A stretch of 32,000 nucleotides of DNA from Nostoc sp. PCC 7120 = FACHB-418 (GTDB lineage: Bacteria; Cyanobacteriota; Cyanobacteriia; Cyanobacteriales; Nostocaceae): assembly GCF_000009705.1 (NCBI RefSeq), contig NC_003272.1, positions 4,860,001-4,892,000 on the forward strand, given 5' to 3'. Both the position numbers and the translations under genes were made by a program. Below, piece after piece: positions 3,101-32,000 of this stretch. The notes beneath the pieces are model-generated. The model searched no databases. It saw nothing but the letters and a program-made list of their open reading frames with translations, and was not told where the DNA came from. Each line of letters starts with the position of its first letter. The stretch's first letter is position 1.

Positions 3101-3714
3101 ACTTCATCAGTAAATCTTTCATCTGTGGAGAGTTCCAGAAGGGCTTGATAAGATTCAACCCAACCCTCACGGCTATCTCCAACGTAGATAGTAGCGCTAT
3201 TGCCTTCTATATGGGTTTGTGTATATTCACGACGTAAATGTTTAGGGGTAGTACCAATTTCCCCTTTAACAATGATATTCAGGTGATTACGAATGGGTGG
3301 CAGTTGATTAATATATTCCGGTTCGATGACGGCTCCCGTGCCACACCCCATCATCGCTAGGTTCATCATCAACCCGAAGGCTTTCCAGTCTTGGAGGTTG
3401 GTGGATGTGCAGTTATAGGCACCGGAGAAGTTTTTGGATTTATTGATCCAATCTGTGCCGCCCACCCACAACCAGCGTCCACTGGGTAAGGCTGTTAAAT
3501 TACGCTGTGTCTTGTCTAAAATTGCTACTTCTTCCGGACTCAGCTTACCTAATTCGATTAAATCTTTGAGGGTGCGATCGCACACCTCATCCCACGTTTC
3601 CCTTAACCCCGCTTCTGTACGGCGGCTATAGGTTCTAAAAAATACCGGATTGGCAGCTGGGGCAGATTCAGGAAACCTTGCACTCTGACGTTTTCTCTCA
3701 AGCTCACGAACCAT
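196..3714 (-). CDS. nrdJ: Class II (adenosylcobalamin-dependent) ribonucleoside-triphosphate reductase NrdJ, interrupted by one intein (1172-aa precursor, 765-aa extein)
   Basis: A single 1172-aa ORF. The extein parts carry RNR-type motifs (FFRTYSR, NPCGEI, TVQPSGT). The conserved segment VAGNIRR / SAGMRQF is split by the intein. The lengths match my recollection of the published Anabaena PCC 7120 NrdJ (1172 aa with a 407-aa intein). Confidence 0.93.
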   Translation of the reverse strand: MVRELERKRQSARFPESAPAANPVFFRTYSRRTEAGLRETWDEVCDRTLKDLIELGKLSPEEVAILDKTQRNLTALPSGRWLWVGGTDWINKSKNFSGAYNCTSTNLQDWKAFGLMMNLAMMGCGTGAVIEPEYINQLPPIRNHLNIIVKGEIGTTPKHLRREYTQTHIEGNSATIYVGDSREGWVESYQALLELSTDERFTDEVQVFVDVSDVRQSGETLNGFGGVANPVKLPGLYQRCAAILNKALGRKLNSVECCLLIDEGAVTIVAGNIRRCLPEDALVHTAKGLVPIRDVQVGDLVQTPLGFRRVVDKFDQGFQDVYEIETNATYPRATLNHRQAVLEDAKGGIVWKHIASLEAGDRLLHNKQVLPGTVTHLPADFTESRPSHSRTAKSFVVPELTAEVAWLIGFTHGDGYVALGRNKYDKPYGRVEWSMNSLDAEVTSRIQAKIDAALALFGLSAVHSITKGENTAKSICSSIRLAEYFHRHIKQPNIPLTVPSFILQGSVDIRAAYLAGLMDSDGAVNNRPPHLITSVYRSFIRQVSVVLSSLGIAGRLTTTYPQNSNWQVKYNLTIPALKERYNALISPHSAKGELRQGLKMYGFTVPGAVMRETYTYSEMREMGFQGSRTVDANYERYVAEADISLDIPVTVKGLGSYDHVQTYDIEVDEAHCFYCDGYLTHNSAGMRQFISDDQLGAAAKDNLWQQDENGRWRIDPERDSLRMANHTRVFHRKPTLEECVDAVRKQYYSGEGAIQWAGEAVARANIDLLPTQALKVEFLKAYEQGTAKDWLQKRHPHFDEKELKHRLARYALNPCGEIIGSNFHCNLSEIHLNQIDPFNYKEQEEAFTAGALSVATLLNHKFPEPRYQYSRELDPIVGVSFTGLFDFFVHAFGAEWLQWWEAGRPATPQGLAFKREEEKYLSSWREIVQRVVWDYCDRHNIKRPNRCTTVQPSGTKSLLTGASPGWHPPKAQRFIRRITFRKNDPVALACIDYGYNVIPSQSDKDEQGNLLNDPLDPRVSEWLVEIPVAVSWADIPGADTIDISKFNAIAQMDFYMQVQKFYVTHNTSATIEVREHEVETLGTQIWQAIQNDEGYISAALLARFDDHQTFPRLPFEPISKEQYEQMVKEVVQRRKTDDFYAVLSRYDFGDLMEVGPAGCDSDKCMMPEQSPN
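1669..2889 (-). mobile_element. Class 1 intein (407 aa) with a LAGLIDADG homing-endonuclease domain, inserted in nrdJ
   Basis: Starts at Cys276 (codon 2889-2887, CLPEDALV, block A). TLNH forms the block B TxxH. Two LAGLIDADG motifs are present (LIGFTHGDGYV and YLAGLMDSDGAV). The C-terminal block is DIEVDEAHCFYCDGYLTHN, ending at Asn682 (codon 1671-1669) and followed by +1 Ser683. Confidence 0.92.
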
Positions 3715-8575: not shown

Positions 8576-10231
8576 TCAATGATCAAGTTGGAATAAAATA
8601 CCGCCTTTAAGCGTTCCAGGCTCATTACCGTAACTACTGAAGGTCAGCGATCGCAAATTCTCAAAGAATGGTTTCCCGACTAATTCTATGAGCTTAAGTA
8701 TGGGTATTTGCTGCTCTACTAAATTCTGACTTTTTGACCAGTCCAGATAGATATAACCTTGATTTGGTTGGGGAATGGTAGCGATAGTATCTTGGAAGTT
8801 GCGGTTATTGATTAAAGATTTGTCTTTAGTTGTAAAAACCTCATAGATAGTTGCTAGGTCAGAGGTAAAAATTTCATAATTGCCTAAGGTTGTATGTACC
8901 CCTTTTACATTGGCTTCCACTATAAATGATGGTTTGTTTTTGCCATCAGCTTTTTGAGTTGCGGTTGTTAATTCTGTCCAGGCGACGACTGTTTGCTTGT
9001 CCAGTTTAATTGTATTAGTACTGAGTCCTTGAGATGAGGCGATCGCATCTAAACGCCCAATAGCTTCTGGTACATTTTCTGACTTTTCTGTCACAAAAAC
9101 CCAGTCAGGAATGCTCTGTCCTGTACGGGGGATTAATGCAACTGCGTATTCTCCCTGTACCCAGCTAAATATATCTTGTCCTAAATTGATACCCTGACTT
9201 TTCTGCACATCGGCTAAGGGTTGAATCAATCGGGAAATTATATCTGTTCCTGAACCAGAGATGGCTGTTTTTGCTTGTGTCCAGAGTTTGGCTAAATCGC
9301 TGTTACCCAAATTGTCTAAGTGGGAACCAGAAATGACCAACCCTGCTGATGCGGGAATATATTGTAATGCGCCTACAGGTTTAGATAGTGGGGGTGATGT
9401 TGGTAAAATTTCCGATGCAGTGAGAAAGCTAGTTTCTGCTAATATTCCTTGAGGATTTAAGGTGAAAGCGACAATTTCACTATCGTAGGTTGGTTCTGGT
9501 AAATCTAAACCTTGCCATCGTGCCACTAGAGGGAGATTGAGAAAAGCCGTAGCTAGAGAACCTTTAGGTATTTGTTCAATAGCTTTTTGGTATTGGGTAG
9601 AACTCAGCAAATTTAAATCAGGAGCCTGGACATTATTAATCGCATCACGCAATACTTTAGGATTATTGGCGAATAACACAAAGTTATCAACCACTGCACC
9701 AGCCAGAGAATCGGACTCTGGTAAAGAACTATCATAGATAACCTTTGCGCCTTGATATTCTTCTGTTGCTAAGTTCGCTCCAGCTAATACTCTTTTAGAG
9801 AACAATAATTGCAGAAATTCTTGGCTTTTCTCTGGTTTGCTGGTTGCTAGCGCCATTAAATAGCCTGGTTGTCTCCCATTCTCCGGGTCACGGTCAATAT
9901 CTAGGGTAGTGACAGCCAATGTAATTTCATCTTTTAGCCAAGGTTGAATGTCTTGCTTATAATCTATGCCACTCTTAGCCAATAAGCTGGTTTTGAGTTT
10001 AGTTAATTCGCCTGAACTGTCGAAAGATTGCAACCGGTCAGGATTTACCAGTAATGAAACTGTTACAGGAGACAGCTTCGATATAAATATGGCTGCACTA
10101 GGTTGAGAACTAGAAGAGACAAGGTTAACCGGACTTTTAGCGAAGAACCAGTAAAAGCCTGCGATCGCCGCTACAATCAAAGCGATCGCCCCTGCAACAA
10201 TAAAACCAGAAAAAGAGCGTTGTGTGTTCAT
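8576..10231 (-). CDS. Membrane-anchored protein, probably DUF3352 family (551 aa)
   Basis: Long ORF with a single N-terminal TM segment (FSGFIVAGAIALIVAAIAGFYWFF). The size and composition resemble cyanobacterial DUF3352 proteins. The family call is from memory only. Confidence 0.55.
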   Translation of the reverse strand: MNTQRSFSGFIVAGAIALIVAAIAGFYWFFAKSPVNLVSSSSQPSAAIFISKLSPVTVSLLVNPDRLQSFDSSGELTKLKTSLLAKSGIDYKQDIQPWLKDEITLAVTTLDIDRDPENGRQPGYLMALATSKPEKSQEFLQLLFSKRVLAGANLATEEYQGAKVIYDSSLPESDSLAGAVVDNFVLFANNPKVLRDAINNVQAPDLNLLSSTQYQKAIEQIPKGSLATAFLNLPLVARWQGLDLPEPTYDSEIVAFTLNPQGILAETSFLTASEILPTSPPLSKPVGALQYIPASAGLVISGSHLDNLGNSDLAKLWTQAKTAISGSGTDIISRLIQPLADVQKSQGINLGQDIFSWVQGEYAVALIPRTGQSIPDWVFVTEKSENVPEAIGRLDAIASSQGLSTNTIKLDKQTVVAWTELTTATQKADGKNKPSFIVEANVKGVHTTLGNYEIFTSDLATIYEVFTTKDKSLINNRNFQDTIATIPQPNQGYIYLDWSKSQNLVEQQIPILKLIELVGKPFFENLRSLTFSSYGNEPGTLKGGILFQLDH

Positions 10232-10253
10232 TAGTTATTTAATTAGTTGTTAG

Positions 10254-10273
10254 AGACGCGATTAATCGCGTCT
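10254..10273. repeat. Perfect 20-bp palindrome AGACGCGATTAATCGCGTCT in a divergent promoter region
   Basis: AGACGCGATT (10254-10263) is the exact reverse complement of AATCGCGTCT (10264-10273). It is flanked by STRR-like AGTTGTT/CAGTTGT units and followed by a pyrimidine-rich tract (10297-10353). Confidence 0.8.
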
Positions 10274-10391
10274 GTACAGTTGTCAGTTGCCAATAGTTTT
10301 CTCTTCCCCCCCCTGCTTCCCCTGCTCCCTACTCCCCACTCTTCCCCTTTTCTGTCAACATAAATAATATAGGATTGTTTACTAAAACCTC

Positions 10392-10751
10392 ATGACTGGG
10401 AATACTTCTGGGCAACCAATGACTCAAATTAGTGTAAATGAATTAGCTCTATATCTTGCTAATGAAAATGCAGATATTCAGTTAATAGATGTACGGGAAC
10501 CGCAAGAGTTAGCGATCGCCCAAATTGATGGCTTTGTCAACCTACCCCTGAGTGAATATGCTCAGTGGTCAGAAAAAGTCCCAACTATGTTTAATCCAGA
10601 AGCAGAAACCCTTGTATTATGTCACCACGGTGTCCGCTCTGCTCAGATGTGTCAGTGGTTAGTCTCTCAGGGATTCACCAATGTCAAAAATATTGCTGGT
10701 GGTATTGCTGCCTACTCTTTGCTAGTTGACTCCTCAATTCCCCAGTATTAG
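10392..10751 (+). CDS. Single-domain rhodanese-like sulfurtransferase
   Basis: 119 aa. LIDVREPQE, an active-site loop CHHGVRS, and NIAGGIAAY. Confidence 0.88.
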   Translation: MTGNTSGQPMTQISVNELALYLANENADIQLIDVREPQELAIAQIDGFVNLPLSEYAQWSEKVPTMFNPEAETLVLCHHGVRSAQMCQWLVSQGFTNVKNIAGGIAAYSLLVDSSIPQY

Positions 10752-10778
10752 CGGCTTACTAGCTCATTAAATGATCTC

Positions 10779-10810
10779 AAGCTGGAATACTAAACTCCAG
10801 CTTATTTGTG
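10779..10810 (+). terminator. Candidate rho-independent terminator after the rhodanese gene
   Basis: AAGCTGGA (10779-10786) pairs with TCCAGCTT (10796-10803) and is followed by ATTTGTG. Confidence 0.5.
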
Positions 10811-11167
10811 CTATTGTTGACAAAATTCTCGGAGTTTGAGATTGCAGTAATGAAGCCCAATATAGTTAGGTTCAACCTAAATTTAGCTAGCATTATTAGT
10901 ATATATATCAACCATAAAAATACGTATCTTACAATACATTTTATCTAATTTATATATGCAAAAATACTGAGAAAATTAAATAGCAATACATCAATTTTTT
11001 TCTTTCATCAGCCGACTCAAAAAATAGCAACCACAGAATTTTAATAATAGTTATTACAATAGAAATATATATTTTGCGTTTCTAATTAACTATTATGAAT
11101 TTTTGCTTTAAAATTTCACAATTTTTCAAAATCTACTTAGCATTTGCCTTCCGTCAAACATATCCCT

Positions 11168-12265
11168 ATGCAAGTCCAGTTGACTAATCGACAACAGCAT
11201 ATACTTTGGGCAACGGTACGTCATTATATAGCTACAGCAGAGCCTGTTGGCTCAAAAGCTTTGGTCGAGGAATACGACTTGGGCGTTAGCTCTGCCACAA
11301 TTCGCAATGTAATGGGCGTACTAGAGAAATCTGGGTTATTGTACCAACCGCATACATCTGCTGGACGAGTACCTTCTGACTCAGGTTATCGCATTTATGT
11401 TGACCAGTTAATTACCCCCTCTCTGCGAGACACTACACGAGCAGAAGTTTTAGCAAAAGAGGTAGAATCAGCCCTACAACAGCATCTGCAATGGGAAGAC
11501 TGGAGTCTGGAAATACTGTTGCAAGGAGCCGCCCAGATTTTAGCTAGCTTGAGTGGGTGTATTAGCTTGATTACTATGCCCCAAACCAACACAGCATCCG
11601 TAAGACATTTGCAGTTAATGCAGATAGAAACGGGACGAATCATGCTGATATTGGTGACGGATAGTTATGAAACCCACTCAAAGCTGATGGATTTACCCCC
11701 AGCGAGGAGCGAAACAAAACCCGACCCAGAAGTAATTGACAGGGAATTACAAATTGTTTCTAACTTCTTAAATAGTCACTTACGGGGGCGGAGTCTGTTA
11801 GAAATCAGTACTCTGGATTGGAGTCAATTAGATCGAGAATTTCAAAGTTATGGAGAGTTTCTAAAAAATTCCGTAGCAGAATTAGCCCACCGCAGTGCTG
11901 CGCCGGCTGCAACTCAAATCATGGTGCGGGGTTTGGCAGAAGTGTTGCGTCAACCGGAATTCTCCCAGCTTCAGCAAGTGAAAACGATTATACAACTATT
12001 GGAAGAAGAACAAGAGCAACTGTGGCGGCTAATATTTGAGGAACCAGAGTTAGAAGATACGCACAAATCCAAGGTAACAGTGCGTATCGGCGCAGAAAAC
12101 CCGTTAGAACCGATACGCACCTGCTCCTTAATTTCTTCTACCTATCGCCGGGGAGGAGTCCCGTTGGGTAGTGTGGGAGTTTTGGGGCCGACACGCCTAG
12201 ATTACGAAAGTGCGATCGCAGTTGTAGCGGCTGCTGCTGATTACCTCTCAGAAGCCTTCAGTTAA
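11168..12265 (+). CDS. hrcA: Heat-inducible transcription repressor HrcA
   Basis: [28 protein letters not shown]...[42 protein letters not shown] is the canonical HrcA winged-helix N-terminus. I prefer the ATG at 11168 to the in-frame TTG at 11144. Confidence 0.9.
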
Positions 12266-22767: not shown

Positions 22768-23103
22768 ATGCTCCATTTTCATGTTTTATCTGAGTTCTCC
22801 CGTGCCAACTGTATCGGTATTTGTGCGTTTCTTGTCCCAGCCAATTTACTCGCTACATTGTTAACAATTATCCTAGCTGTCGTAGGTCGCCCAACCCATC
22901 AAATTTGGCAAGCCGTCAGCCTAGCTAGTGTTTTTGCAACTTTGATGATTTTACACGTATATACATGGTTCCAAATTGGCGTGGTCATGGCTCCTACGTA
23001 TATTTTGTTAGGTTTAGCGATCACTTGTTTGGTCAGTAACTTTGCCGTAGTAATTCTACATAAGCGCTACTTTTATCAGCACAGTATTTCTCAAAACGCC
23101 TAA
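22768..23103 (+). CDS. Small integral membrane protein (111 aa, about 3 TM segments), unknown function
   Basis: Hydrophobic ORF. The start codon is uncertain. Confidence 0.5.
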   Translation: MLHFHVLSEFSRANCIGICAFLVPANLLATLLTIILAVVGRPTHQIWQAVSLASVFATLMILHVYTWFQIGVVMAPTYILLGLAITCLVSNFAVVILHKRYFYQHSISQNA

Positions 23104-23202
23104 CATCCAGACTTTAGTTGGGAGAAGGGAATGTTGAATGGTGATTCAGAATGTCTCCCTCATCTCCCTAATTACACTATCTTGGCAACCTAGCATCAAA
23201 CT

Positions 23203-23350
23203 CTCAGCGTAACTCCCTTCGGGTGACGCTCCTAACGTCGCTAACGCTGCGCTAACACCAGTCGCCTGCGGTTCGTGCAGCGTCTCGTAGCAGAGAGAAA
23301 CCCTCCCGCAGCGCTGGTTCACCGCGCTAACCTCAGCGCCCCCCTGCGTT
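23203..23350. repeat. GC-rich island of degenerate short repeats inside an otherwise AT-rich 640-bp intergenic region
   Basis: Repeated CGCTAAC, CTCAGCG and CCTGCG(G)TT units. It also contains GCAGCGTCTCGTAGCAGAGA, related in reverse complement to the core of the 4731-4808 element. Confidence 0.55.
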
Positions 23351-23743
23351 TAACAGTCCCCCATCAACTCACCACGAATTTACGCAAAGGGATACCAAGT
23401 AATTATAAATTTTCATAGTAAATTTATAATCTCTCTTCACCCCCACATCAATAGAGAGACGGTAAATGCTTACAAAATCAATACTTTGCTTCATCTACAC
23501 TTACTTACATTTGCAGATCACTTATGGTGTAAATTTATTTTTTTAGTGAAAACACCGAGTAATATCTTCCGATAAGTAGATGGTTGTGTCAATATTACTG
23601 AATCAATAGGTAACAAAAATCCCTGGCAAGCCTATATCCGAAAGCAGCACATCTGCAAAAAGTAAGATATGTGATGCCATAGTTTCCAGATAAGTTTTGG
23701 AAACACCAAATGACTCACTGCCTAACTATCCAAGAAGTTGCCA

Positions 23744-25552
23744 ATGACAAACGTCTCTACCCTGGTTGAACTGCTACGCGCTCGTGCTAATCATGAGCCG
23801 GACAAGCTCGCCTATATGTTTCTCATCGATGGGAAAACAGAAGGCCCAAAGTTAACATACGCAGAATTGGATCGTCTAGCCCGTGCAATTGGTGCATTAT
23901 TGCAGAAACATAATGCTAAAGGTGAACGTGTTTTGCTGCTGTACCCCCAGGGATTAGACGTGATGGCAGCATTTTTGGGTAGTCTTTATGGTGGAGTCAT
24001 TGCCATCCCTGCACCTCCTCCTGATGCTGGTAGATTGAAACGGGCTTTGCCTCGGTTACGGGCTATTGTTAAGGATGCCAACGCTAAATTTGTCTTCACC
24101 AACCAGCACCTTTTGGGTGTTCTGCAAGCAGCCAAGTTAGATTTTCCCGAATTTGAGGAAATGACTTGGTTTGCCAGCGAAGACATCGATTTAGAACTAG
24201 CAGACCAATGGCAAGACCCTGAAATTACTCCAAATACCCTGGCATATTTGCAGTACACATCAGGCTCGACTTCCACACCAAAGGGTGTGATGATTAGCCA
24301 CCACAACATCATGCACCACTGCGCTTATCTACAAAAAGCTTGTGGCTATGATACTGAGAGCGTTTCCATCACCTGGATGCCATATTTCCACGATTACGGG
24401 CTAGTAGAAGGGTTGACCGTACCCATTTACAACGGTCATCCTTGCTATGTTATGTCCCCTATGTCCTTTATTAAACAGCCTGTACGTTGGTTACAAGCAA
24501 TTTCTCGCTATCGCGGTACTCATAGTCAAGCTCCTAACTTTGCTTATGAACAGTGCATTCGCCGCGTCACCGATGCACAACTAGCTACCCTGGATCTCAG
24601 CAGTTGGGTAGCAGCCGGGAATGCCGCCGAACCAATTAACCCTAGAGTGTTAGAAGAGTTTTTTGAGAAGTTCGCCCCTAGTGGGTTCAAGTGGGAAACC
24701 TTTGCACCCGCTTATGGATTGGCAGAAAATACACTGTTGGTTTCTACCAGCCCCAGAAATACACCACCTGTCCTGTGTTTGGTAGAAAAAACCAAAATTG
24801 AGCAGAACAAAATTGTGGAAGCCACTACCTGGGACGATGGAGTCCGGGCTATCCCTGGATGCGGTCGCTTAGTTTGTGAGACGCAAGTGGCAATTGTCAA
24901 TCCAGATACTTTGACTCGTTGTGGGACGGATGAAGTAGGCGAGGTATGGGTAGCAGACCCTAGCGTGGCTGGTGGTTATTGGCAACGCCCCCAAGAAAGC
25001 GAAAGTACCTTCCGTGCCAAGATTGCCGGGAATAATCAAGTCTCTTTCCTCCGCACAGGTGACTTGGGCTTTATCAAGGGTGGTGAGTTGTTCATCACCG
25101 GACGGATCAAAGATTTGATTATTATCCGGGGGACTAACCATTATCCCCAAGACTTGGAATGGACTGTACAGGAAATTCACCCAGCCCTTCGCCCAGACTA
25201 TGGTGCAGCCTTCTCCATCGATGTGGATGGAGTGGAACAACTGGTAGTCGTCCAGGAAGTTAAACGCAAACCAGAAGAAGAGTTTAACTCAGATGAGGTA
25301 TTGACCAATATTCGGCAAGCGATCGCCGAAATTCATGAACTGCAAGCATACGCTGTGGTTCTTGTCAAGCCTGGTAATGTTCTCAAAACCTCCAGTGGCA
25401 AAATTCAACGACGTGCCTGCAAAGCCAGTTTCCTCGCCGGTGAGTTGGAAGTTTTAGCCGATTGGAGCGAAAACCCCAAATACACCGCCAGCTATCGGCG
25501 ACTACAAGGGGAAGTAAATTCTTTGCTGGAAAAGGTGCAAGTTACTCACTAA
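23744..25552 (+). CDS. Fatty acyl-AMP ligase (FAAL, FadD32-like adenylating enzyme)
   Basis: [85 protein letters not shown] and [11 protein letters not shown]. I prefer the ATG at 23744 to the TTG at 23738. Confidence 0.9.
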   Translation: [602 protein letters not shown]

Positions 25553-25562
25553 GGAGAAAATT

Positions 25563-27371
25563 ATGCAGCCACTCAAGCAATATTGGATCGCAGAAGCATT
25601 AGAGAAAGATTTGGGCGACCCTAGCAACCCAAATAATGTGATGTCGTTTAAGCAGGTAATTGACCTGGACGAACGAGAAGAGTTTCCCCATGAGATTATT
25701 AATTGGCTCTATAACTGGAAACTCCAGCACTATTACATCCCTACAGAATGCGGCGGTGAATTTACCTCCTTTGACGAGTTTATCGCCTTTGTGCGCGTCC
25801 TTTCCCGCCGTGACCAAACCGCAGCGATCGCCTTCACCACCATGTTCTGGTCATACCTGACATGGATGGCAGGCACGGACGAGCAGAAGCGCACCCTAGC
25901 CAGCTTCATGAAAGATGCCAACGGGGCTATGTGTCTGGCTTATTCAGAGAAAGCCCACGGTAGCGATTTACTCGCCAGTGATGTGAGAGCGACAAAAGCC
26001 CCTGGTGGCTACATCCTCAACGGCGAAAAATGGCCGATTAACCGCGCCACCATCTCCGGGGTTACCTTCGTCCTAGCCAAAACCGACGAAGAAGGCGGAG
26101 CGCGTAGCCTCTCCCTATTCATGATAGAAAAGAGCAAAATCGACCCCGCCAACTATAGCCACCTACCAAAAATCTTTACCCACGGTGTGCGCGGTTCAGA
26201 TATGAGTGGGATCAAATTTGAGAACTGCTTCATCCCCGAATCTATGCGGTTGGGGGCAGAAGGGGCAGGACTAGAACTAGCACTCAAAGGCTTCCAAATC
26301 ACCCGCGCTTTATGTGCCGCCTTTTCCCAAGGGGCTGCTGATACTGCCCTGCGGACTACCCTCAAGTTTGCCTTGGGGCGGCAGTTATACGGCAAGACCG
26401 TTTATGATATGCCCCAACCCAAACGCACTTTAACAGATGCGTTTCTGGATATCCTGATTTGCGACTGCGCCACCATTGGCGTTACCCGTGGGTTTAACAC
26501 CATGCCAGAGCAAATCAGCGTCTGGTCAGCCGTGGTGAAATACTTCGTCACCACCAACCTAGAAACAGTCGTGCAGAATGTCTCCGTCGTTTTAGGTTCA
26601 CGCTTTTATATGCGTGAAGAACACGACTATGGCATTTTCCAAAAAGTACTGCGGGATAACGCCATCATCAGTATGTTTGATGGCAGTACTGTAGTTAACC
26701 TCCATGCTTTGTTGCTGCAACTACGTCAACTCGCCAAGTCCCGCGCCAGAAATGCTGGACGCAACCAAGAAACCTTACAAGCACGTCTAGCAGCCACCTT
26801 TGACTTAACCCAAACCTTACCCGCTTTTGATGGTAAGAAGTTGGAACTAGTCAACCGGGGTGGTGATGACGTTTTGCAAGGATTAGGTTTAGCCCTGACA
26901 TCTTTAATTGATTTAAAGGCAGACTCCAGCCTCAATTCCGAAGTATTGCAGCAAATTATCCAACTAACCGAAATAGTACAGGAGGAATTAAACACTCTTG
27001 ATCATCAGATTACAGAGTCTACCTTCCAGTTTGGGCATGAGCAAGCACCAGAAGTCTTCGACATAGCCAAACAATACTGCGTCCTGCACGCGGCTGCTAG
27101 CTCTGTCTATATGTGGCTTCACAACCGCCATCATTTGGGAGACTTCTTTAGTCATGGCGAGTGGTTGGCACTCGGCCTCCGCAAACTACTGTTAACCTTC
27201 CGCCCAGCTAAAGCCTTACCAGGGCGCATTGATGACGCAGCAGTTGCCCAAGAGTTAGTCCGGTTGTACACCGACAATCGGATGTTTTCCATCGTTCCCT
27301 TCCAATTAGCAAACCCTCAACTACAAGAGACTAAAACTGATGCAACTCAAAGACTCCAACTCCAAGCCTAG
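25563..27371 (+). CDS. Acyl-CoA dehydrogenase-family flavoprotein (602 aa, long form), likely acting on ACP-tethered acyl chains
   Basis: It has a strong AAGGAG Shine-Dalgarno 10 nt after the FAAL stop. ACAD-like regions include CLAYSEKAHGSDL, GEKWPINRAT, MSGIKFENCFIP and ALKGFQITRALCAA. About 180-200 extra residues follow at the C-terminus. Confidence 0.8.
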   Translation: MQPLKQYWIAEALEKDLGDPSNPNNVMSFKQVIDLDEREEFPHEIINWLYNWKLQHYYIPTECGGEFTSFDEFIAFVRVLSRRDQTAAIAFTTMFWSYLTWMAGTDEQKRTLASFMKDANGAMCLAYSEKAHGSDLLASDVRATKAPGGYILNGEKWPINRATISGVTFVLAKTDEEGGARSLSLFMIEKSKIDPANYSHLPKIFTHGVRGSDMSGIKFENCFIPESMRLGAEGAGLELALKGFQITRALCAAFSQGAADTALRTTLKFALGRQLYGKTVYDMPQPKRTLTDAFLDILICDCATIGVTRGFNTMPEQISVWSAVVKYFVTTNLETVVQNVSVVLGSRFYMREEHDYGIFQKVLRDNAIISMFDGSTVVNLHALLLQLRQLAKSRARNAGRNQETLQARLAATFDLTQTLPAFDGKKLELVNRGGDDVLQGLGLALTSLIDLKADSSLNSEVLQQIIQLTEIVQEELNTLDHQITESTFQFGHEQAPEVFDIAKQYCVLHAAASSVYMWLHNRHHLGDFFSHGEWLALGLRKLLLTFRPAKALPGRIDDAAVAQELVRLYTDNRMFSIVPFQLANPQLQETKTDATQRLQLQA

Positions 27372-27720
27372 TACTAATAACGCCGTTGACACTATCCAAG
27401 GGTGGTTAGTTAACCAGATTGCCACACAATTAAACATCAATGCTCAAACCATCAAAGTTACTGAACCCTTGACTCGCTACGGTCTAGATTCCATTGATTC
27501 AGTCACTATCGTCGGTGAATTGGAAGATTGGCTTGATGCAGAACTACCCCCTACCTTACTCTGGGATTACCCCACCATTGAAAAAGCGTCTCAATATTTG
27601 GTGAACGAAGTAGGTGTAACACCTGCGGAAACAGCAACGGCTGAACCCGCTACCAAACCTCAAGAAGCCCCCAAAGAAAAAGCCTGGGGTGGTCTGTGGA
27701 ACAAAATTAGTGGCAGTTAA
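27340..27720 (+). CDS. Acyl carrier protein (PKS/NRPS-type PP-binding domain) with a ~35-aa C-terminal tail
   Basis: RYGLDS51IDSVTIVGELEDWL (Ser codon 27490-27492) and LLWDYPTIEKASQYL. The start overlaps the dehydrogenase 3' end by 32 nt. Confidence 0.85.
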   Translation: MQLKDSNSKPSTNNAVDTIQGWLVNQIATQLNINAQTIKVTEPLTRYGLDSIDSVTIVGELEDWLDAELPPTLLWDYPTIEKASQYLVNEVGVTPAETATAEPATKPQEAPKEKAWGGLWNKISGS

Positions 27721-27850: not shown

Positions 27851-29314
27851 TTGAATTTCTCAGAATTTTCTTTCTGGTGGGTGCTGCTACTTTTTAGCAT
27901 CCCTTTCTTTACAGTCCGGTATGTTGCCAAATCATTGAACCTGTGGAGAGGAATCTTTGATGCAGTTGGTTTGGCAGCAATTTCTTCCCTATTATTTGTC
28001 AACGCTTCTCGTTCTAGTTTTGCCATCTTCGTCTGTGAAATCATCTTCAACTACGTCATGGTGTGGTTGATGTTGCGTCAACAAGGATGGAAAGCTAAAG
28101 CGATCGCTACTACTGTCATCATTATAGATATTGCTATTCTTGCCTACTTCAAATACCTAAACTTTTTTGTTGAAGATGTTTTAGGGTTGTTAGTCCCAGG
28201 ATTAGCCGACAATTGGCAATCCAAGAGTATTCCCGGTATGGGTTCCATTCCCCCAGGATTGTCTTTTTACACCTTCCAGATGGTGGCGTTTGTTGTTGAC
28301 TCCTACACCAGCCGCAAAAAACGTGCTATTGGCGCATTAGATTATCTCAATTTCGTCTCCTTCTTCCCCCAAGTGGTGGCAGGCCCCATCGAACGCCGGG
28401 GTGATTTGTTTCCCCAAATTGAGTCATTCCGCTTTAAATTTACTTATGACAACTTTGAAACAGGCTTTCGCTGGTTGTCGTTAGGACTATTCATGAAGTT
28501 TGTCCTAGCAGATAATATTTCACCTTATATCAAATTAGACCAAGCCCAAAACCCTTGGCTAGTATGGTTCTTTGCCTTCTTATTTACATTACAAATTTAC
28601 TTTGACTTCGGCGGCTATAGTTTTATTGCTCTGGGTTTAGCAAAATTTTTAGGCATCAACTTAACTATTAACTTTTTGGCTCCTTACACATCCCAAAGCA
28701 TTAACGAGTTTTGGCGCAGATGGCACGTCACACTTAGTACTTGGTTTCGGGATTACGTCTTCTTACCTCTCATGGGTAAGAACAAACAGTGGGCCCCATT
28801 TTATCTATTTCTCACCTTCACCCTTTCGGGATTCTGGCACGGAGCCGCGTGGAACTTTGTCTTCTGGGGCGCATACCACGGGCTATTGTTATTAGTTATA
28901 CGTTACGCCGGACGACCTTTTTACAAACTTGTTGGACAGCAAAGGTTCCTCATGCCACAGTTTATTTCCTGGGCATTAACCTTCGGTTCGATCATCTTGG
29001 GATGTCTGTTTTTTATGGAAACCAAGACACCAAGACTATTAGAGAAGTTGCAAACAATCCTGAACCCTTGGACATATTCTTTAGCCAATCTTGGCGAAGC
29101 CATGAGTTTCTTCAGTGGTAACGAAGCGATCGCACTAGGATTTACTCTAGCATTAGCCATCACCTTGTTACTCATGGAACACATTGGAGTCTGGCAACAA
29201 CGGGCGTGTGAATATGACTTGTTACTCTCTCCCTGGGTTTCGCGGGTGCTATTAGCGTTAACCGTCTTACTAGCTGCGAATACACCATCGCCCTTTATCT
29301 ACTTTGAGTTCTAA
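27851..29314 (+). CDS. MBOAT-family membrane-bound O-acyltransferase (AlgI/DltB-like)
   Basis: LSFYTFQMVAFVVD, FFPQVVAGPIERR, FDFGGYS, EFWRRWHVTLSTWFRDYVFLPL and GFWH330GAAWNFVFWGAYHG (His codon 28838-28840). The start appears to be TTG at 27851 (MNFSEFSFWW..., typical of an AlgI N-terminus). Confidence 0.9.
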   Translation: MNFSEFSFWWVLLLFSIPFFTVRYVAKSLNLWRGIFDAVGLAAISSLLFVNASRSSFAIFVCEIIFNYVMVWLMLRQQGWKAKAIATTVIIIDIAILAYFKYLNFFVEDVLGLLVPGLADNWQSKSIPGMGSIPPGLSFYTFQMVAFVVDSYTSRKKRAIGALDYLNFVSFFPQVVAGPIERRGDLFPQIESFRFKFTYDNFETGFRWLSLGLFMKFVLADNISPYIKLDQAQNPWLVWFFAFLFTLQIYFDFGGYSFIALGLAKFLGINLTINFLAPYTSQSINEFWRRWHVTLSTWFRDYVFLPLMGKNKQWAPFYLFLTFTLSGFWHGAAWNFVFWGAYHGLLLLVIRYAGRPFYKLVGQQRFLMPQFISWALTFGSIILGCLFFMETKTPRLLEKLQTILNPWTYSLANLGEAMSFFSGNEAIALGFTLALAITLLLMEHIGVWQQRACEYDLLLSPWVSRVLLALTVLLAANTPSPFIYFEF

Positions 29315-29322
29315 GGAATTAT

Positions 29323-30264
29323 ATGGCTGCTCTGAAAAAATTTCTACAGCTTAATAGTTGGTTGGCGATCGCCGTTTTAGCCTGGGGTGTTGGTTACTTA
29401 TACAATGCTCGTTATGGGGGCGAACTCAGTTGGCTACGCATCATGTATGAGCAGAAAAAAGCGATCGCAAGTGAAGTCCAAGCTCCCCAACGGATTTTGA
29501 TTGTCGGTGGTTCTGGGGCGCACTACACCGTAGACGCAGGATTGATGCAGCAACAATTAGGCATCCCGGCTCTCAACATGGCCACAGATGGCCCAGTCGG
29601 CTTAAATGTCATCCTGCCCAGTGTCGCCGATAGCATTAAAAAAGGTGATATTGTCGTACTAATACCGGAGTATCTCATCTTAAATGATAAAGATGGCTTT
29701 GGCGATCGCTCTGGTCAGTTTAGTGTAGCCATTGGTAAACCCGGACTTGGGGGTGTTCCTGCCAAACAACTAGCCCAAGATATCATGTTGCTTGGTGTTC
29801 CTACCTTGCGCGCAGTTACCAAGTCATCTGTAGAATTAGTAGAAAAAGGCCGCTTCACTGGTTATTACTCCGATCCCATCACTGCGAATGGAGACCCTAC
29901 AGTGATGAAACAGCGCCTTAAGTCAGCTTGGTGGCAACTAAAAATCCAAGAGCCAGTTTCTCCCCAGGCTTTACGACGTATTCGCCAGTTTAAAAAAGAA
30001 GTTGAAGCTAAAGGCGCAACTTTAGTTCTCGGACTTTCGTGGATTTACGCCAGTACTGATACTAAAACCATCGGTAATATCAGCAAAACTGCTGAGAAAC
30101 TAAGTGAAATTGCCCCTCTACTCTACGACAAACAAACCTTGAACGTAAAAACCGATTCGAGTCTGTTTGCCGACACCCACTATCACCTCAATCCTCCAGG
30201 TCGCCGCACCCGCACCACCGAGTTAGTAGAACAACTCAAGACCCTCAATATTATTCGTAACTAA
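29323..30264 (+). CDS. N-terminally membrane-anchored extracytoplasmic protein, putative SGNH/DltD-like partner of the MBOAT
   Basis: It starts 8 nt after the MBOAT stop, with an AAGGA Shine-Dalgarno. There is one TM segment (WLAIAVLAWGVGYLY). Candidate block I is ILIVGGS64GAHY and candidate block V is FAD284TH286YH288LNPPG. The fold assignment is an inference. Confidence 0.55.
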   Translation: MAALKKFLQLNSWLAIAVLAWGVGYLYNARYGGELSWLRIMYEQKKAIASEVQAPQRILIVGGSGAHYTVDAGLMQQQLGIPALNMATDGPVGLNVILPSVADSIKKGDIVVLIPEYLILNDKDGFGDRSGQFSVAIGKPGLGGVPAKQLAQDIMLLGVPTLRAVTKSSVELVEKGRFTGYYSDPITANGDPTVMKQRLKSAWWQLKIQEPVSPQALRRIRQFKKEVEAKGATLVLGLSWIYASTDTKTIGNISKTAEKLSEIAPLLYDKQTLNVKTDSSLFADTHYHLNPPGRRTRTTELVEQLKTLNIIRN

Positions 30265-30313
30265 TCCGCAGGTACAGGGCAAGGGGCAGAGAGAGGAGCA
30301 GAGGAAAAATATT

Positions 30314-30338
30314 GACAACTAACAACTGACAACTGACT
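30314..30338. repeat. STRR heptamer repeat (GACAACT / AACAACT / GACAACT)
   Basis: Units at 30314-30320, 30321-30327 and 30328-30334. A GA-rich tract precedes it at 30270-30310. Confidence 0.8.
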
Positions 30339-30359
30339 CTTACCTCCACACTTTTAATT

Positions 30360-32000
30360 ATGGTTGCAAATGAAGGAATATCCAAAAACATATTGACAAG
30401 GAAGCTAGATGATGTATTTGGGCTGGATTTGCGATCGCTAGCGGCTTTTCGCATCGGTATCTCATTAATTCTTTTGATCGATTTGGGCATTCGTTTCAGT
30501 GATTATATCGCCCACTACACCGATGCAGGCGTTATGCCCCGCGCCTTACTGGCAGACATCAGCAAACCTTGGCACTGGTCACTCCATGCCATGAGTGGCG
30601 AACCCATCTTTCAAGCGGTATTGTTTGGCATTGCGGCTGTGATGGCGCTCCTGATGCTAGTGGGATATCGCACGCGGATTGCCACGATTGCATCTTGGGT
30701 TTTGCTCATCTCCCTCCACAACCGGAATCCGGCATTAATTTTTGCCGCCGATGATGTGTTGCGTGCGCTGATGTTTTGGGCAATGTTTCTGCCCCTGGGT
30801 GCTAGTTACTCCATTGAAAGCGCTCTGAATACTAATACGCGCAAGTTACCGGAAAGGGTGGTTTCTGGGGCTACTTTTGCCTTAATTTGCCAGCAGTGTT
30901 TTATTTATATATTCTCTGCTGCCTTCAAAACTAAAAGCCCAGTCTGGGTTGATGGTAGTGCTGTTTACTATTCTCTCAGTTTTGATCAATACACCACTCC
31001 TCTCGGTCATTTTCTGCTCAACTTCCCGCCACTATTAACCCTGTTTACCTACGTTACCTTGGTGCTGGAATGGGTAGGGCCGTTATTGCTGTTTATTCCC
31101 TTCCGTAACAGCTTCTTTCGGATGTGTGCTGTTACTACCTTCGTCTTGCTGCACGCAGGATTTGGCTTAACTTTGAACTTGGGCATCTTCCCATTTTTAA
31201 GTATCTTCAGTTGGTTAGCCTTCCTCCCCAGTTCCTTTTGGGATGGGCTACACAAGCGCCTGCAAACACCAGAACATAAAGGCTTGACAATTTACTTCGA
31301 TGCCGATTGTGGTTTCTGTAAAAAAGCAGTACATCTGTTGCGGACACTCTTGATTTTGCCAGGAACGCCGTTACTCATGGCGCAAGAATACCCAGATATC
31401 CATACTGATATGCAAACCTACAATTCCTGGGTAGTGGAAGACTGGCAGGGAAACCGACATTTCAAATTTGAGGGAATAGCCTACATCGTTAGTCTCTCAC
31501 CTGTATTCCGCTTTCTGGTTCCCTTGCTCACATGGAAACCAGTCATGGCAGTAGGTACAAAATTTTATGAGGTAATTGCTTCTAACCGCAAAATAGCAGG
31601 TAATTTCACCAAACCCTTTAAATTCAAACCAATACAGATACGCTCATCACGGATTCTGAATATTTTGGCGCTGTTATTGCTGTTGTATACTTTTGTCTGG
31701 AATATCAGTAGTTATTCCCCCGATGCCTTTAAACGCAAGGTTTGGCAAAGTACAGAATTCATTGGCCGGGCTACACGCCTAGACCAATCTTGGAGTATCT
31801 TTGCGCCCGCACCACCGAGAGATGACGGCTGGCACGTAATTCCGGCTCGTTTGCAAGATGGAACTGAGGTTGATATTTTCCGGGGAGGAAGTCCAGTAAC
31901 TTGGGATAAACCAGACTTGGGTTTACGAAGTGCCATCTACCAAAATATGCAGTGGCGTACTTATTTTATTAATTTGAATCGGGCAATCGGTAAAAAGCTC
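30360..32000 (+). CDS. HTTM (vitamin K-dependent gamma-carboxylase-like) membrane domain fused to a DCC/DUF393 thiol-disulfide oxidoreductase domain. Partial: it runs off the window end.
   Basis: This ORF is not in the supplied track. My hand translation from the ATG at 30360 gives 547 codons with no stop. It begins MVANEGISKNILTRKLDDVFGLDLRSLAAFRIGISLILLIDL...SLHNRNPALIFAADDVLRALMFWAMFLPLGASYS (HTTM-like). Later comes LTIYFDADCGFCKKAVHLL (CxxC at 31308-31319, DCC-like), then a region QSWSIFAPAPPRDDGW. Confidence 0.75.
   Translation, partial: MVANEGISKNILTRKLDDVFGLDLRSLAAFRIGISLILLIDLGIRFSDYIAHYTDAGVMPRALLADISKPWHWSLHAMSGEPIFQAVLFGIAAVMALLMLVGYRTRIATIASWVLLISLHNRNPALIFAADDVLRALMFWAMFLPLGASYSIESALNTNTRKLPERVVSGATFALICQQCFIYIFSAAFKTKSPVWVDGSAVYYSLSFDQYTTPLGHFLLNFPPLLTLFTYVTLVLEWVGPLLLFIPFRNSFFRMCAVTTFVLLHAGFGLTLNLGIFPFLSIFSWLAFLPSSFWDGLHKRLQTPEHKGLTIYFDADCGFCKKAVHLLRTLLILPGTPLLMAQEYPDIHTDMQTYNSWVVEDWQGNRHFKFEGIAYIVSLSPVFRFLVPLLTWKPVMAVGTKFYEVIASNRKIAGNFTKPFKFKPIQIRSSRILNILALLLLLYTFVWNISSYSPDAFKRKVWQSTEFIGRATRLDQSWSIFAPAPPRDDGWHVIPARLQDGTEVDIFRGGSPVTWDKPDLGLRSAIYQNMQWRTYFINLNRAIGKKL

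Follow-up and report, generated by a model that had tools for sequence, protein, structure and literature searches.

An HTTM-DCC1 membrane protein with the overall build of animal GGCX, encoded next to a Dlt-like acyl-relay cluster in Nostoc sp. PCC 7120

To our knowledge, MloH is the only bacterial HTTM/GGCX homologue with an assigned reaction. This Streptomyces HTTM carboxylase belongs to malonomycin biosynthesis and is reported to carboxylate a non-protein PK-NRP intermediate (Law et al. 2018, as cited in later work). In the animal gamma-glutamyl carboxylase GGCX, D263 is the partner of K218 and the D263E variant keeps activity (PMC13486548), while F299 stacks on CO2 (PMC12647623). The giant-virus protein VKED has been proposed to couple epoxidation to the modification of lipids (PMC13486548). 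A fusion of HTTM and DCC1 in the Firmicute Melghirimyces, together with an adjacent DUF5819 protein, is predicted to form a GGCX-like whole (bioRxiv 10.64898/2026.08.19.745780). When the literature was searched for the cyanobacterial cluster of fatty acyl-AMP ligase (FAAL), acyl dehydrogenase (ACAD), acyl carrier protein (ACP) and MBOAT described below, or for the function of HTTM-DCC proteins, only a DUF-interaction preprint was found.

Here we describe a gene at the end of a 32,000-nucleotide stretch of Nostoc sp. PCC 7120 DNA (the whole of this stretch is called the window). It encodes a membrane protein that is conserved in cyanobacteria and built along the same general lines as animal GGCX.

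A three-part membrane protein with the build of GGCX

Translation from the ATG at 30360 on the + strand gave 547 codons without a stop up to the window end at 32000, in agreement with an earlier note made from the sequence alone, which had read at least 547. The frame is preceded by an in-frame TGA at 30327, and the ATG at 30360 is the first start codon after it. With the downstream sequence added, the complete gene has 602 codons and ends with TAG, 168 nt lying beyond the window; the part inside the window is identical to positions 10001-11641 of locus L001. The ORF list of the window excludes frames that run off the source, which is the reason that the note had suspected for the absence of this one. 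The product already has a public annotation: a sequence from the Anabaena/Nostoc PCC 7120 group that matches it at 100% is listed by NCBI as "HTTM domain-containing protein". The peptides quoted in the note were all found in the translation: FGLDLRSLAAFRIGISLILLIDL at aa 20-42, SLHNRNPALIFAADDVLRALMFW at aa 118-140, FKTKSPVWVDGSAVYY at aa 189-204 and IYFDADCGFCKKAV at aa 311-324. Its division of the protein into HTTM, DCC/DUF393 and a third region proved correct by Pfam, orthologues, family profile and AlphaFold model. The protein begins with an HTTM domain and ends in a small C-terminal module that follows the last TM helix; a DCC1 domain interrupts the loop leading into that helix. The features are as follows (evidence in brackets).

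30360..32000, + strand: HTTM-DCC1-C-terminal-module membrane protein (P0001), first 547 of 602 codons (translation, NCBI match, complete gene)
30360..31259, + strand: HTTM (GGCX-type) membrane domain, aa 1-300 (Foldseek, family profile, PF05090 in orthologues)
30927..30929, + strand: K190, aligned with GGCX K218 (catalytic base), in 48 of 48 family members (family profile alignment)
31068..31070, + strand: E237, aligned with GGCX D263 (partner of K218), Glu in 45 of 48 (family profile alignment)
31188..31190, + strand: F277, aligned with GGCX F299 (stacks on CO2), in 48 of 48 (family profile alignment)
31290..31592, + strand: DCC1-like thiol-disulfide oxidoreductase domain, aa 311-411, in the loop that precedes the last TM helix (PF04134; flanking charge)
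31299..31319, + strand: DxxCxxC motif, D314, C317 and C320 (translation, family alignment)
31650..31715, + strand: last TM helix, aa 431-452, at the position of TM9 in GGCX (AF2 helix; hydropathy, charge)
31716..32000, + strand: extracytoplasmic module at the C-terminus, aa 453-602, of which aa 453-547 lie in the window (AF2, charge, alignment)

The Pfam HTTM model PF05090 did not match the window protein at E values up to 10, either as a whole or as a 305-aa segment, and the assignment therefore required evidence at the level of the family. Two orthologues of about 60% identity passed the cutoff of 27.7 bits, P0055 with 30.4 and P0106 with 30.0, their alignments covering positions 5-257 of the 259 in the profile; in the wider family, the model matched 19 of the 48 members. 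At the level of Pfam, the HTTM call is carried by these relatives and not by the window protein itself. The AF2 model of the ORF product (pLDDT 87.9) was compared with the PDB by Foldseek. Human GGCX occupied all of ranks 1-16 (best E 2.5e-7, probability 1.00); the best alignments, which included substrate-bound GGCX, spanned about 580 columns, and the first non-GGCX match had an E value of 0.69. As modelled, the protein has the GGCX-type membrane-domain fold. Identity to GGCX is only 12-18%. Of the sequence searches against the PDB, only the broad family profile A2 reached GGCX (residues 114-313, E 0.008); the single-sequence search and the narrow cyanobacterial profile A1 returned chance matches only.

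Residue conservation was counted over 48 family members and mapped via the alignment to GGCX, as the earlier note had proposed. The catalytic Lys, which deprotonates the quinol in GGCX, and its acid partner have aligned equivalents in K190 and E237, the latter position being Gln in the remaining three members. R276 and G297 of GGCX correspond to R254 and G275, each present in all 48 members, and the equivalent of H287 is also conserved. The alignment likewise retains the CO2 pocket, with F277 at the position of F299 and, at that of W223, Trp in 44 of 48. However, the residues that hold the glutamate substrate in GGCX were not conserved: N159/H160 are A129/A130 here and Gly/Gly in most of the family, and Y395 falls where the alignment offers no counterpart. 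The quinol ligand N290 is not conserved in the family either. It follows that the substrate site differs from that of GGCX and that the quinone site may differ as well; as the glutamate-holding residues are not conserved, gamma-glutamyl carboxylation of proteins by the ORF product is unlikely. The match of the family profile to GGCX ends at residue 313, and neither the propeptide-binding lumenal domain of GGCX nor its conserved segment 374-418 has a counterpart in the C-terminal module of about 150 aa.

The activity of the DCC1/DUF393 family itself is largely predicted, and we know of no DCC domain that has been shown to reduce quinone epoxides. The domain in the window protein was recognized by PF04134 (DUF393) with 30.5 bits in the whole protein and 34.2 bits in the isolated segment, above the cutoff of 27.8, and the same model matched 45 of the 48 family members. 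The CxxC (C317, C320) lies at 31308-31319, exactly where the note had placed it. Within D314-A-D-C317-G-F-C320 the Asp is kept in 46 members, C317 in 46 and C320 in 47. Profile and DxxCxxC motif place the domain in the DCC1-like family. The linkers on both sides of it are positively charged by hydropathy and charge analysis. On the basis of this charge distribution and of the topology of GGCX, the DCC1 loop is predicted to be cytoplasmic, opposite an outward-facing active site. The idea of a "built-in" reductase coupled directly to the active site was therefore rejected, and any role of the DCC domain in recycling requires the quinone to cross between leaflets.

The third region is real as well: in the AF2 model, a mixed alpha/beta domain of about 150 aa comes after helix 431-452, and this region as a whole had no Pfam match. 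The module carries the motif QxWxxFAPxP...DGW and a conserved Cys pair, C556/C600, located beyond the window end. Identification as DUF5819, SdpA or LMF1 was rejected, since ten sequences (the window module and nine diverse family members) gave no Pfam match at E values up to 10. At locus L092, which encodes a split relative, the 171-aa neighbour was not similar to the module by BLASTP and had no Pfam match. The likeness to DUF5819 is an analogy of position only, with no demonstrated identity.

Linkage to the upstream acyl-relay cluster

The genes upstream of the HTTM/DCC gene encode the following proteins.

23738..25552, + strand: fatty acyl-AMP ligase, FAAL (PF00501 1.2e-62; NCBIfam FAAL models)
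25563..27371, + strand: acyl-CoA/ACP dehydrogenase-family flavoprotein, ACAD, carrying about 220 extra aa at its C-terminus (Pfam, NCBIfam)
27340..27720, + strand: acyl carrier protein, PP-binding (Pfam)
27851..29314, + strand: MBOAT, DltB-like membrane acyltransferase (PF03062 1.3e-26; TIGR04091)
29323..30264, + strand: X313, membrane-anchored SGNH-fold protein, DltD/PatB/OatA-like (AF2, Foldseek, invariant residues, linkage)
30265..30359, no strand: spacer of 95 nt between X313 and the HTTM/DCC gene (promoter/terminator scan)

An adenylating enzyme, a carrier protein, an MBOAT and an SGNH-type protein are thus encoded in one gene run on one strand, with gaps of 10, -32, 130, 8 and 95 nt; the last is the spacer, whose length the earlier note had given correctly. 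The MBOAT matched the DltB model TIGR04091 with E 2.4e-50, but its 171.9 bits did not reach the equivalog cutoff of 375, and the cluster is therefore called Dlt-like rather than Dlt. X313 had no Pfam or DltD profile match. Since its sequence profile found nothing in the PDB, a fold search was needed: the AF2 model (pLDDT 87) matched SGNH esterases, TesA, PatB and OatA in Foldseek, and S64 and D284/H286/H288 are invariant. By consensus scan, the spacer contained no terminator-like site and no promoter-like site on the + strand, and no significant site was found at the 3' end of the HTTM/DCC gene; the scans are therefore uninformative about co-transcription.

Linkage was evaluated in the 69 species loci whose sequence extended 8 kb or more upstream of the HTTM/DCC gene. 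FAAL, ACAD, ACP and MBOAT genes were upstream in 48 of them, and X313, the most constant neighbour, was present in 51; seven had none. At the loci of Microcystis and several other organisms, no cluster gene lies nearby. Gene order and strand are shared by Nostocales, Coleofasciculaceae, Microcoleaceae, Pleurocapsales and Leptolyngbya-like lineages. In the reverse test, the HTTM/DCC gene was downstream in 26 of 30 metagenome loci centred on X313. The linkage, which the note had proposed from proximity to the MBOAT cluster, is real and holds in both directions.

A gene for an NDH-2/FSP1-like NAD(P)H:quinone reductase was directly upstream, within the same gene run, in 50 of the 69 species. The flavoprotein is closest to NDH-2 (2e-29); FSP1 was also matched. 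This gene and the conserved Lys/acid pair lend indirect support to the quinone-epoxide cycle that the note had suggested. However, the reductase gene is absent from the locus of Nostoc sp. PCC 7120 itself, and the CxxC is predicted to be cytoplasmic.

With 4,118 clusters (50% identity) at E<=1e-30, the family is very large, and it is widespread beyond the producers of phylloquinone. For this reason phylloquinone is not the specific rationale for the protein. In non-cyanobacterial relatives the gene for this three-part protein is found on its own or beside polysaccharide genes, without FAAL/MBOAT and without X313, so the acyl relay is no universal partner. Taxon labels of matches from metagenome-assembled genomes ("Gracilibacteria", "Nanoarchaeota") were unreliable; locus L057 carries such a label and is clearly cyanobacterial.

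Candidate reaction and alternatives

The reading that we put first, giving it a little less than an even chance, is that the protein is a GGCX-type enzyme, driven by quinol and O2, that modifies the acylated envelope product of the Dlt-like relay. It draws on the aligned catalytic residues, the predicted fold, the conserved CxxC, the linkage to the acyl relay and the flavoprotein gene, the SGNH fold of X313 and the precedent of MloH. The HTTM enzyme would bind a naphthoquinol (phylloquinol in Nostoc sp. PCC 7120) at the outer leaflet and oxygenate it through K190/E237, generating the strong base typical of GGCX chemistry. This base would take a proton from a substrate other than a protein and most likely carboxylate it; the substrate would be a fatty-acylated molecule of the envelope, produced by the relay and presented by the SGNH partner X313. 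The cytoplasmic DCC CxxC and, where present, the NDH-2-like flavoprotein would return the oxidized quinone or epoxide to the quinol. Carboxylation appears the most likely of the possible base- or oxygen-driven reactions, only the retained Phe and Trp pointing to it.

More doubtful is a general form of this proposal, a lipid-directed bacterial "vitamin K cycle" operating in cyanobacteria and many other bacteria. Here phylloquinol and O2 would drive carboxylation, or another C-H activation, of the relay-attached fatty acyl to give a Gla-like, metal-binding malonyl lipid, and the DCC CxxC and the NDH-2/FSP1-like flavoprotein would recycle the epoxide in place of VKOR.

The most probable of the alternatives, although we think it rather improbable, is that the HTTM domain oxygenates the quinol as an epoxidase or oxidant generator and thereby drives a reaction of the lipid other than carboxylation (desaturation, hydroxylation or 2-enoyl isomerization). 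It would account for the conservation of the K218/D263 equivalents but not of N159/H160, and for an acyl dehydrogenase-family gene within the cluster; a Leptospira GGCX orthologue reportedly has epoxidase but no carboxylase activity, and the best viral structural match was the HTTM epoxidase-desaturase (VKED) of Yasminevirus (E 4.4e-8). However, the viral precedent is itself a proposal, and the invariant or nearly invariant equivalents of F299 and W223 are not needed by an enzyme that is solely an epoxidase.

We consider it unlikely that the DCC CxxC is the working centre of a quinone-linked thiol-disulfide relay, in which HTTM would only bind a membrane quinone as electron sink or source and a protein or small-molecule thiol would be oxidized or reduced, by analogy with DsbB or VKOR-thioredoxin fusions. 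The nearly invariant CxxC and the adjacent quinone reductase-like flavoprotein agree with such a relay; moreover, JGI labels some members DoxX/SURF4-like and one member has a weak DoxX match. But disulfide formation is not expected on the cytoplasmic side, where the DCC domain is predicted to lie, the membrane domain has no conserved cysteine through which electrons could pass, and it would be left unexplained why the GGCX Lys/acid pair and the CO2-site Phe are so strictly conserved.

Still less probable is a non-catalytic role as a scaffold, export or maturation factor for the SGNH partner or its product, similar to that of SdpB for the SDP toxin. The tight pairing with one small membrane-anchored protein, X313, would fit this, but X313 is missing beside the non-cyanobacterial relatives, and residues of catalytic type that are invariant across relatives of about 40% identity favour catalysis. 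The sub-threshold SdpB match (TIGR04033, 1.9e-7) reached 31 bits, far under the cutoff of 178.4, and membership in that family was rejected.

That the HTTM/DCC gene is an unrelated neighbour, transcribed and used independently of the cluster, is very improbable: the spacer, the loci of Microcystis and others that lack cluster genes and the different contexts of the non-cyanobacterial relatives would be consistent with it, but gene order and strand recur as described in both directions and the scan found no terminator in the spacer.

The operon link in cyanobacteria suggests a candidate substrate class, a fatty-acylated envelope component, and a quinone reductase for bacterial HTTM enzymes, in a group (Anabaena/Nostoc PCC 7120) that is genetically tractable. 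If the GGCX-type reading is true, strong-base or carboxylation chemistry of the vitamin K type extends from proteins to lipids, phylloquinone has a second use outside photosystem I, and the DCC/DUF393 domain acquires its first physiological role.

Comparison with known systems

SdpB of B. subtilis (TIGR04033) resembles the cyanobacterial protein as an HTTM-type membrane protein, with a weak match over aa 84-280. In contrast, SdpB has no DCC domain or C-terminal module, and SdpA and SdpC are absent from the cyanobacterial locus.

The upstream genes recall two other systems. Like the mycobactin module MbtM/MbtL/MbtN, the cluster contains a trio of FAAL, ACP and acyl dehydrogenase, with weak NCBIfam matches to MbtM and MbtN. 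In common with the D-alanylation system DltA/DltC/DltB/DltD, a single operon combines an adenylating enzyme and a carrier protein with an MBOAT and an SGNH-type protein anchored in the membrane. However, its predicted cargo is a fatty acyl and not D-alanine, and Dlt has no HTTM or quinone component.

MloH can be compared by description. It is likewise a bacterial HTTM enzyme in a biosynthetic cluster, acts on a non-protein intermediate of a carrier pathway and has a C-terminal region of extracytoplasmic type. No DCC domain is reported for MloH, and its cluster is of the PKS-NRPS kind rather than a Dlt-like MBOAT relay.

The Firmicute HTTM-DCC1 protein has the same domain order, and a TM helix and domain in the position of those of its partner are part of the cyanobacterial polypeptide. 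The C-terminal module of the latter, however, lacks a Pfam DUF5819 match, and the gene contexts differ. The giant-virus VKED (PMC13486548) shares the Lys, a Glu at the D263 position and the lack of the carboxylase-specific region of GGCX; its HTTM domain is also fused to a cytoplasm-facing partner domain, and action on lipids has been proposed. In VKED the partner is a di-iron desaturase and the recycling neighbour VKOR, whereas here they are a DCC domain and an NDH-2-like flavoprotein.

Unlike GGCX, the cyanobacterial protein has about 110 aa of DCC1 inserted before the last TM helix and a far smaller C-terminal module without the propeptide-binding domain, and its genomic partners are lipid and acyl enzymes instead of Gla proteins. 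What the two share is a fold match over the whole protein and the equivalents of K218, D263 (as Glu), R276, H287, G297, F299 and W223. In the AF2 model, the Lys helix is also capped by short helices, and the final TM helix leads into an outward-facing C-terminal domain.

The reading frame and its three parts

The frame opening with the ATG at 30360 (an in-frame TGA lies at 30327, and this is the next start codon) runs for 547 stop-free codons to the end of the window (30360-32000, +). It was missing from the ORF track because frames running off the source go unlisted. The translation was 100% identical to a 602-residue protein present on 151 contigs and listed at NCBI as "HTTM domain-containing protein [Anabaena sp. 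FACHB-709]". In locus L001, a fetched copy of the region, the gene is complete: its first 1,641 bases equal the window sequence and a TAG stop ends it 168 nt further on. The open frame claimed by the earlier note is thus genuine, yet already in the databases. All peptides quoted there were found in the translation, the CxxC at 31308-31319 and the 95-nt distance to the upstream gene were correct, and the completion from downstream sequence it had proposed was achieved with L001.

The division into HTTM, DCC/DUF393 and a third region was borne out. PF04134 (DCC1-like) matched aa 311-411 with 30.5 bits (34.2 bits on the isolated segment; cutoff 27.8), and the DxxCxxC motif is D314/C317/C320. Pfam HTTM (PF05090) did not match the window protein even at E=10, and the only NCBIfam match, to the HTTM-type SdpB family, was sub-threshold. 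However, orthologues of about 60% identity passed PF05090 over the whole profile, and in the wider family 19 of 48 sequences did so too; the suggested Pfam search thus detected DCC in the window protein itself and HTTM in its relatives. Using 34 orthologues, AlphaFold2 gave a model (mean pLDDT 87.9, pTM 0.87) that was then compared with the PDB. The best 16 matches were all human GGCX, the gamma-glutamyl carboxylase that depends on vitamin K (top E 2.5e-7), followed by a match at E 0.69; alignments to substrate-bound GGCX structures extended over about 580 columns. The GGCX sequence was also matched, at residues 114-313 (E 0.008), by a profile made from 48 varied relatives that share 35-61% identity with the window protein. 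Because the orthologue, fold and profile matches agree, HTTM membership holds at the family level. As judged from fold and catalytic residues the protein belongs to the HTTM/GGCX superfamily and carries a bona fide DCC1 domain, and we regard this structural assignment as highly probable.

In the model, the third region consists of a transmembrane helix (aa 431-452) and a module of roughly 150 aa that mixes alpha and beta structure, with the motif QxWxxFAPxP...DGW and near-invariant C556 and C600. It matched no Pfam family. In a Firmicute, a fused HTTM-DCC protein whose DUF5819 partner is separate has recently been noted (bioRxiv 10.64898/2026.08.19.745780). Equating the C-terminal module with DUF5819 could not be demonstrated, as there was no Pfam match and the neighbour of a split relative was dissimilar.

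Active-site residues and topology

Residues were mapped from the profile alignment to GGCX and script-checked over the 48 family members.

GGCX residues, their counterparts in the window protein, and occurrence in the family
K218: K190; 48/48
D263: E237; Glu in 45 and Gln in 3 of 48
R276: R254; 48/48
H287: H265; His in 37 and Gln in 10 of 48
G297, F299: G275, F277; 48/48
W223: Trp in 44/48
N159, H160: Ala, Ala; Gly, Gly in most relatives
N290: a hydrophobic residue

In GGCX, vitamin K hydroquinone is deprotonated by the base K218, whose partner is D263 (25% activity is left in D263E), and N290 is a quinol ligand (PMC13486548). The glutamate substrate is held by N159, H160 and Y395, and F299 and W223 form part of the CO2/active-site pocket (PMC12647623, PMC12589487). 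The alignment, which the earlier note had recommended, showed the Lys/acid pair, Arg, Phe and Trp retained and the Glu ligands gone. By this mapping the quinol-activating core and the CO2-site aromatics are kept and the glutamate site is not, a pattern consistent with GGCX-type chemistry acting on something other than protein glutamate. Since no counterpart was found for the Glu-site residues or for the propeptide-binding domain, the protein, judged by its sequence, is unlikely to be a functional gamma-glutamyl carboxylase.

The membrane domain of GGCX has nine helices, with the active site at the lumenal leaflet. In the model, the DCC domain is inserted after the helix with which the GGCX match ends (aa 277-300) and before the last helix (aa 431-452). 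In the family as a whole its flanking linkers are positively charged (K+R 3.0 versus D+E 0.6, and 2.5 versus 0.9), and a net negative charge is found in loop 47-81 and in the cap following K190. The positive-inside rule therefore predicts a cytoplasmic DCC domain and an extracytoplasmic C-terminal module. The only conserved cysteines of the whole protein are the DCC CxxC and the C556/C600 pair, and the location of this pair in the C-terminal module fits the predicted placement.

Genomic partners

Upstream of the HTTM/DCC gene the window contains the following genes.

23738-25552 (+): fatty acyl-AMP ligase (FAAL)
25563-27371 (+): acyl-CoA/ACP dehydrogenase-family protein (ACAD), 602 aa, Pfam ACAD domains stopping near aa 380
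27340-27720 (+): acyl carrier protein (ACP)
27851-29314 (+): DltB-like MBOAT
29323-30264 (+): X313, 313 aa, without Pfam family

Successive gaps from FAAL through the HTTM/DCC gene are 10, -32, 130, 8 and 95 nt, the negative value being the 32-nt overlap of the ACAD and ACP genes. The C-terminal extension of the ACAD (about 220 aa) had no Pfam match. X313, labelled hypothetical everywhere and found in cyanobacteria only, was modelled (pLDDT 87) as an SGNH fold with a membrane helix at the N terminus. Its nearest structures were rhamnogalacturonan acetylesterase, TesA and the peptidoglycan O-acetyltransferases PatB and OatA, and its sequence has a DTHYH motif and a GGSG stretch whose serine is invariant.

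Several features of the surroundings were recorded. A 111-aa ORF without Pfam family (22768-23103, +), called as a gene in L001, is separated from FAAL by 634 nt (23104-23737), likely the promoter region of the cluster. In L002, a JGI metagenome copy, FAAL, ACAD and MBOAT are each broken into shorter called genes, which may be assembly errors or real decay; X313 and HTTM/DCC are intact. In the window-identical loci (L001-L003), Lpt-type LPS transport genes (LptD_N-like, ABC ATPase, LptF/G; L001:15090-17565) lie about 3-6 kb 3' of the HTTM/DCC gene. At the other end of the window, a 1,172-aa ORF (196-3714, -) that contains the insertion domain of a class II (B12-dependent) ribonucleotide reductase is interrupted by LAGLIDADG/homing-endonuclease domains at aa ~497-573 and is probably an intein-containing NrdJ.

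Eighty loci of different species from GTDB genomes were scanned by tblastn, including Nostocales, Coleofasciculus, Microcoleus/Okeania, Pleurocapsales and Leptolyngbya-like strains; 69 had at least 8 kb upstream. The FAAL, ACAD, ACP and MBOAT relay was present upstream on the same strand in 48/69 and X313 in 51/69; seven of the 69 had neither these nor the flavoprotein described below. X313 alone stands before the HTTM/DCC gene in Aphanothece (at a distance of 3 nt, 56% identity), Cyanothece and several Coleofasciculus, and in the full clusters of Okeania/Dapis X313 was not detected. Conversely, starting from X313 on metagenome contigs with at least 2.5 kb downstream, HTTM/DCC followed on the same strand in 26/30 loci. 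By these counts in both directions X313 and HTTM/DCC are a tight conserved pair, usually within the full relay. The link to the MBOAT cluster suggested earlier is upheld, and a functional connection is probable. Taxon labels of metagenome matches (for example 'Nanoarchaeota' for the homologue P0423) should be treated with care; the 'Candidatus Gracilibacteria' contig JAAUUT010000099.1 carries a typical cyanobacterial X313-flavoprotein-HTTM/DCC locus (58% identity) and is probably mis-binned.

In 50 of the 69 loci an extra flavoprotein gene lies directly 5' of HTTM/DCC (L004:6602-7942, L006:6651-7874 and 48 others). It is absent from the window, the PCC 7120 clade (L001-L003, L007-L010) and L080, the window clade belonging to the minority without it. 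Among solved structures the flavoprotein is closest to type II NADH:quinone oxidoreductases (Caldalkalibacillus NDH-2, 2e-29; S. aureus NDH-2; Ndi1), with further matches to sulfide:quinone reductases and FSP1 (4.8e-15), the mammalian warfarin-insensitive vitamin K reductase. A putative quinone reductase gene next to a GGCX-like gene in most species gives independent genomic support to quinol-dependent chemistry.

A weaker context was found in 33 of 83 cyanobacterial loci, within 10 kb: GT2 (polyprenyl-phosphate-sugar-synthase-like, sometimes fused to GtrA) and GT-C-like LA_3751/LA_3752-family glycosyltransferases (L066:6172-9549, L004:9855-14260, L005:5029-6882, L091:2686-3960). Several genomes, Okeania among them, carry two HTTM/DCC paralogues, one per context (L054+L066, L061+L071, L056+L079, L042+L064). 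An exhaustive profile search returned 10,786 representative proteins with E<=1e-3, of which 4,118 had E<=1e-30. Among the top 150, almost every one had 580-640 aa and spanned all three parts; one representative was cyanobacterial-like and the others were about 35-41% identical. Near four non-cyanobacterial genes on long contigs no FAAL, MBOAT or X313 was found: three stand alone, and the fourth lies in a polysaccharide-export cluster directly 3' of a DAO/Pyr_redox_2 flavoprotein. This distribution indicates that the three-part architecture is ancient and widespread and the relay partnership specific to the cyanobacterial lineage. All these contexts suggest that envelope lipids or glycans are modified outside the cytoplasmic membrane.

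Proposed chemistry and related systems

The proposal starts from the GGCX-like fold, the conserved Lys, Glu, Arg, Phe and Trp, the inserted DCC domain with its DxxCxxC motif, and the synteny with the acyl relay and the quinone reductase. The enzyme would oxygenate a naphthoquinol at the outer leaflet, and the resulting strong base would take a proton from a weakly acidic C-H in a substrate of lipid type supplied by MBOAT and X313; we lean slightly towards such quinol/O2 chemistry. The alpha carbon of an acyl ester would be chemically comparable to the glutamate gamma-carbon. Since the CO2-site residues are retained, carboxylation would be the most likely outcome, albeit a doubtful one taken by itself; MloH carboxylates a non-protein intermediate and offers a precedent. 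Regeneration of the quinol would fall to the DCC thiols, predicted to be cytoplasmic, together with the NDH-2-like enzyme. With DCC and active site predicted on opposite faces, the quinone or epoxide would have to cross between leaflets, so that the "self-contained" cycle of the earlier note is possible only in a looser sense. Recycling through DCC is rather unlikely.

A serious alternative is an enzyme that is an epoxidase only and drives another lipid modification, as has been proposed analogously for giant-virus fusions. A thiol-disulfide relay linked to quinone, with the DCC domain at its centre, is at odds with a CxxC predicted to be cytoplasmic and would leave the conserved GGCX core unexplained. 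A non-catalytic SdpB-like helper conflicts with the invariance of the catalytic-type residues, and mere adjacency to the cluster with the synteny counts.

Through this protein, the old question of what bacterial vitamin-K-carboxylase homologues do can be turned into concrete experiments in a model cyanobacterium. The literature searched did not contain the single-chain three-part protein, its conserved association with an SGNH protein and a Dlt-like fatty-acyl relay, or the adjacent NDH-2/FSP1-like reductase. The giant-virus HTTM proteins resemble the present family in keeping the Lys, having Glu at the D263 position and losing N290 (PMC13486548), and the best viral structural match of the model was the vitamin K epoxidase-desaturase (VKED) of Yasminevirus (E 4.4e-8). 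The FAAL/ACP/dehydrogenase trio resembles MbtM/L/N (weak NCBIfam matches). The adenylating enzyme, carrier protein, MBOAT and membrane-anchored SGNH-type protein together follow the logic of the Dlt system; to judge from that trio, the cargo here would be a fatty acyl group, probably 2-enoyl.
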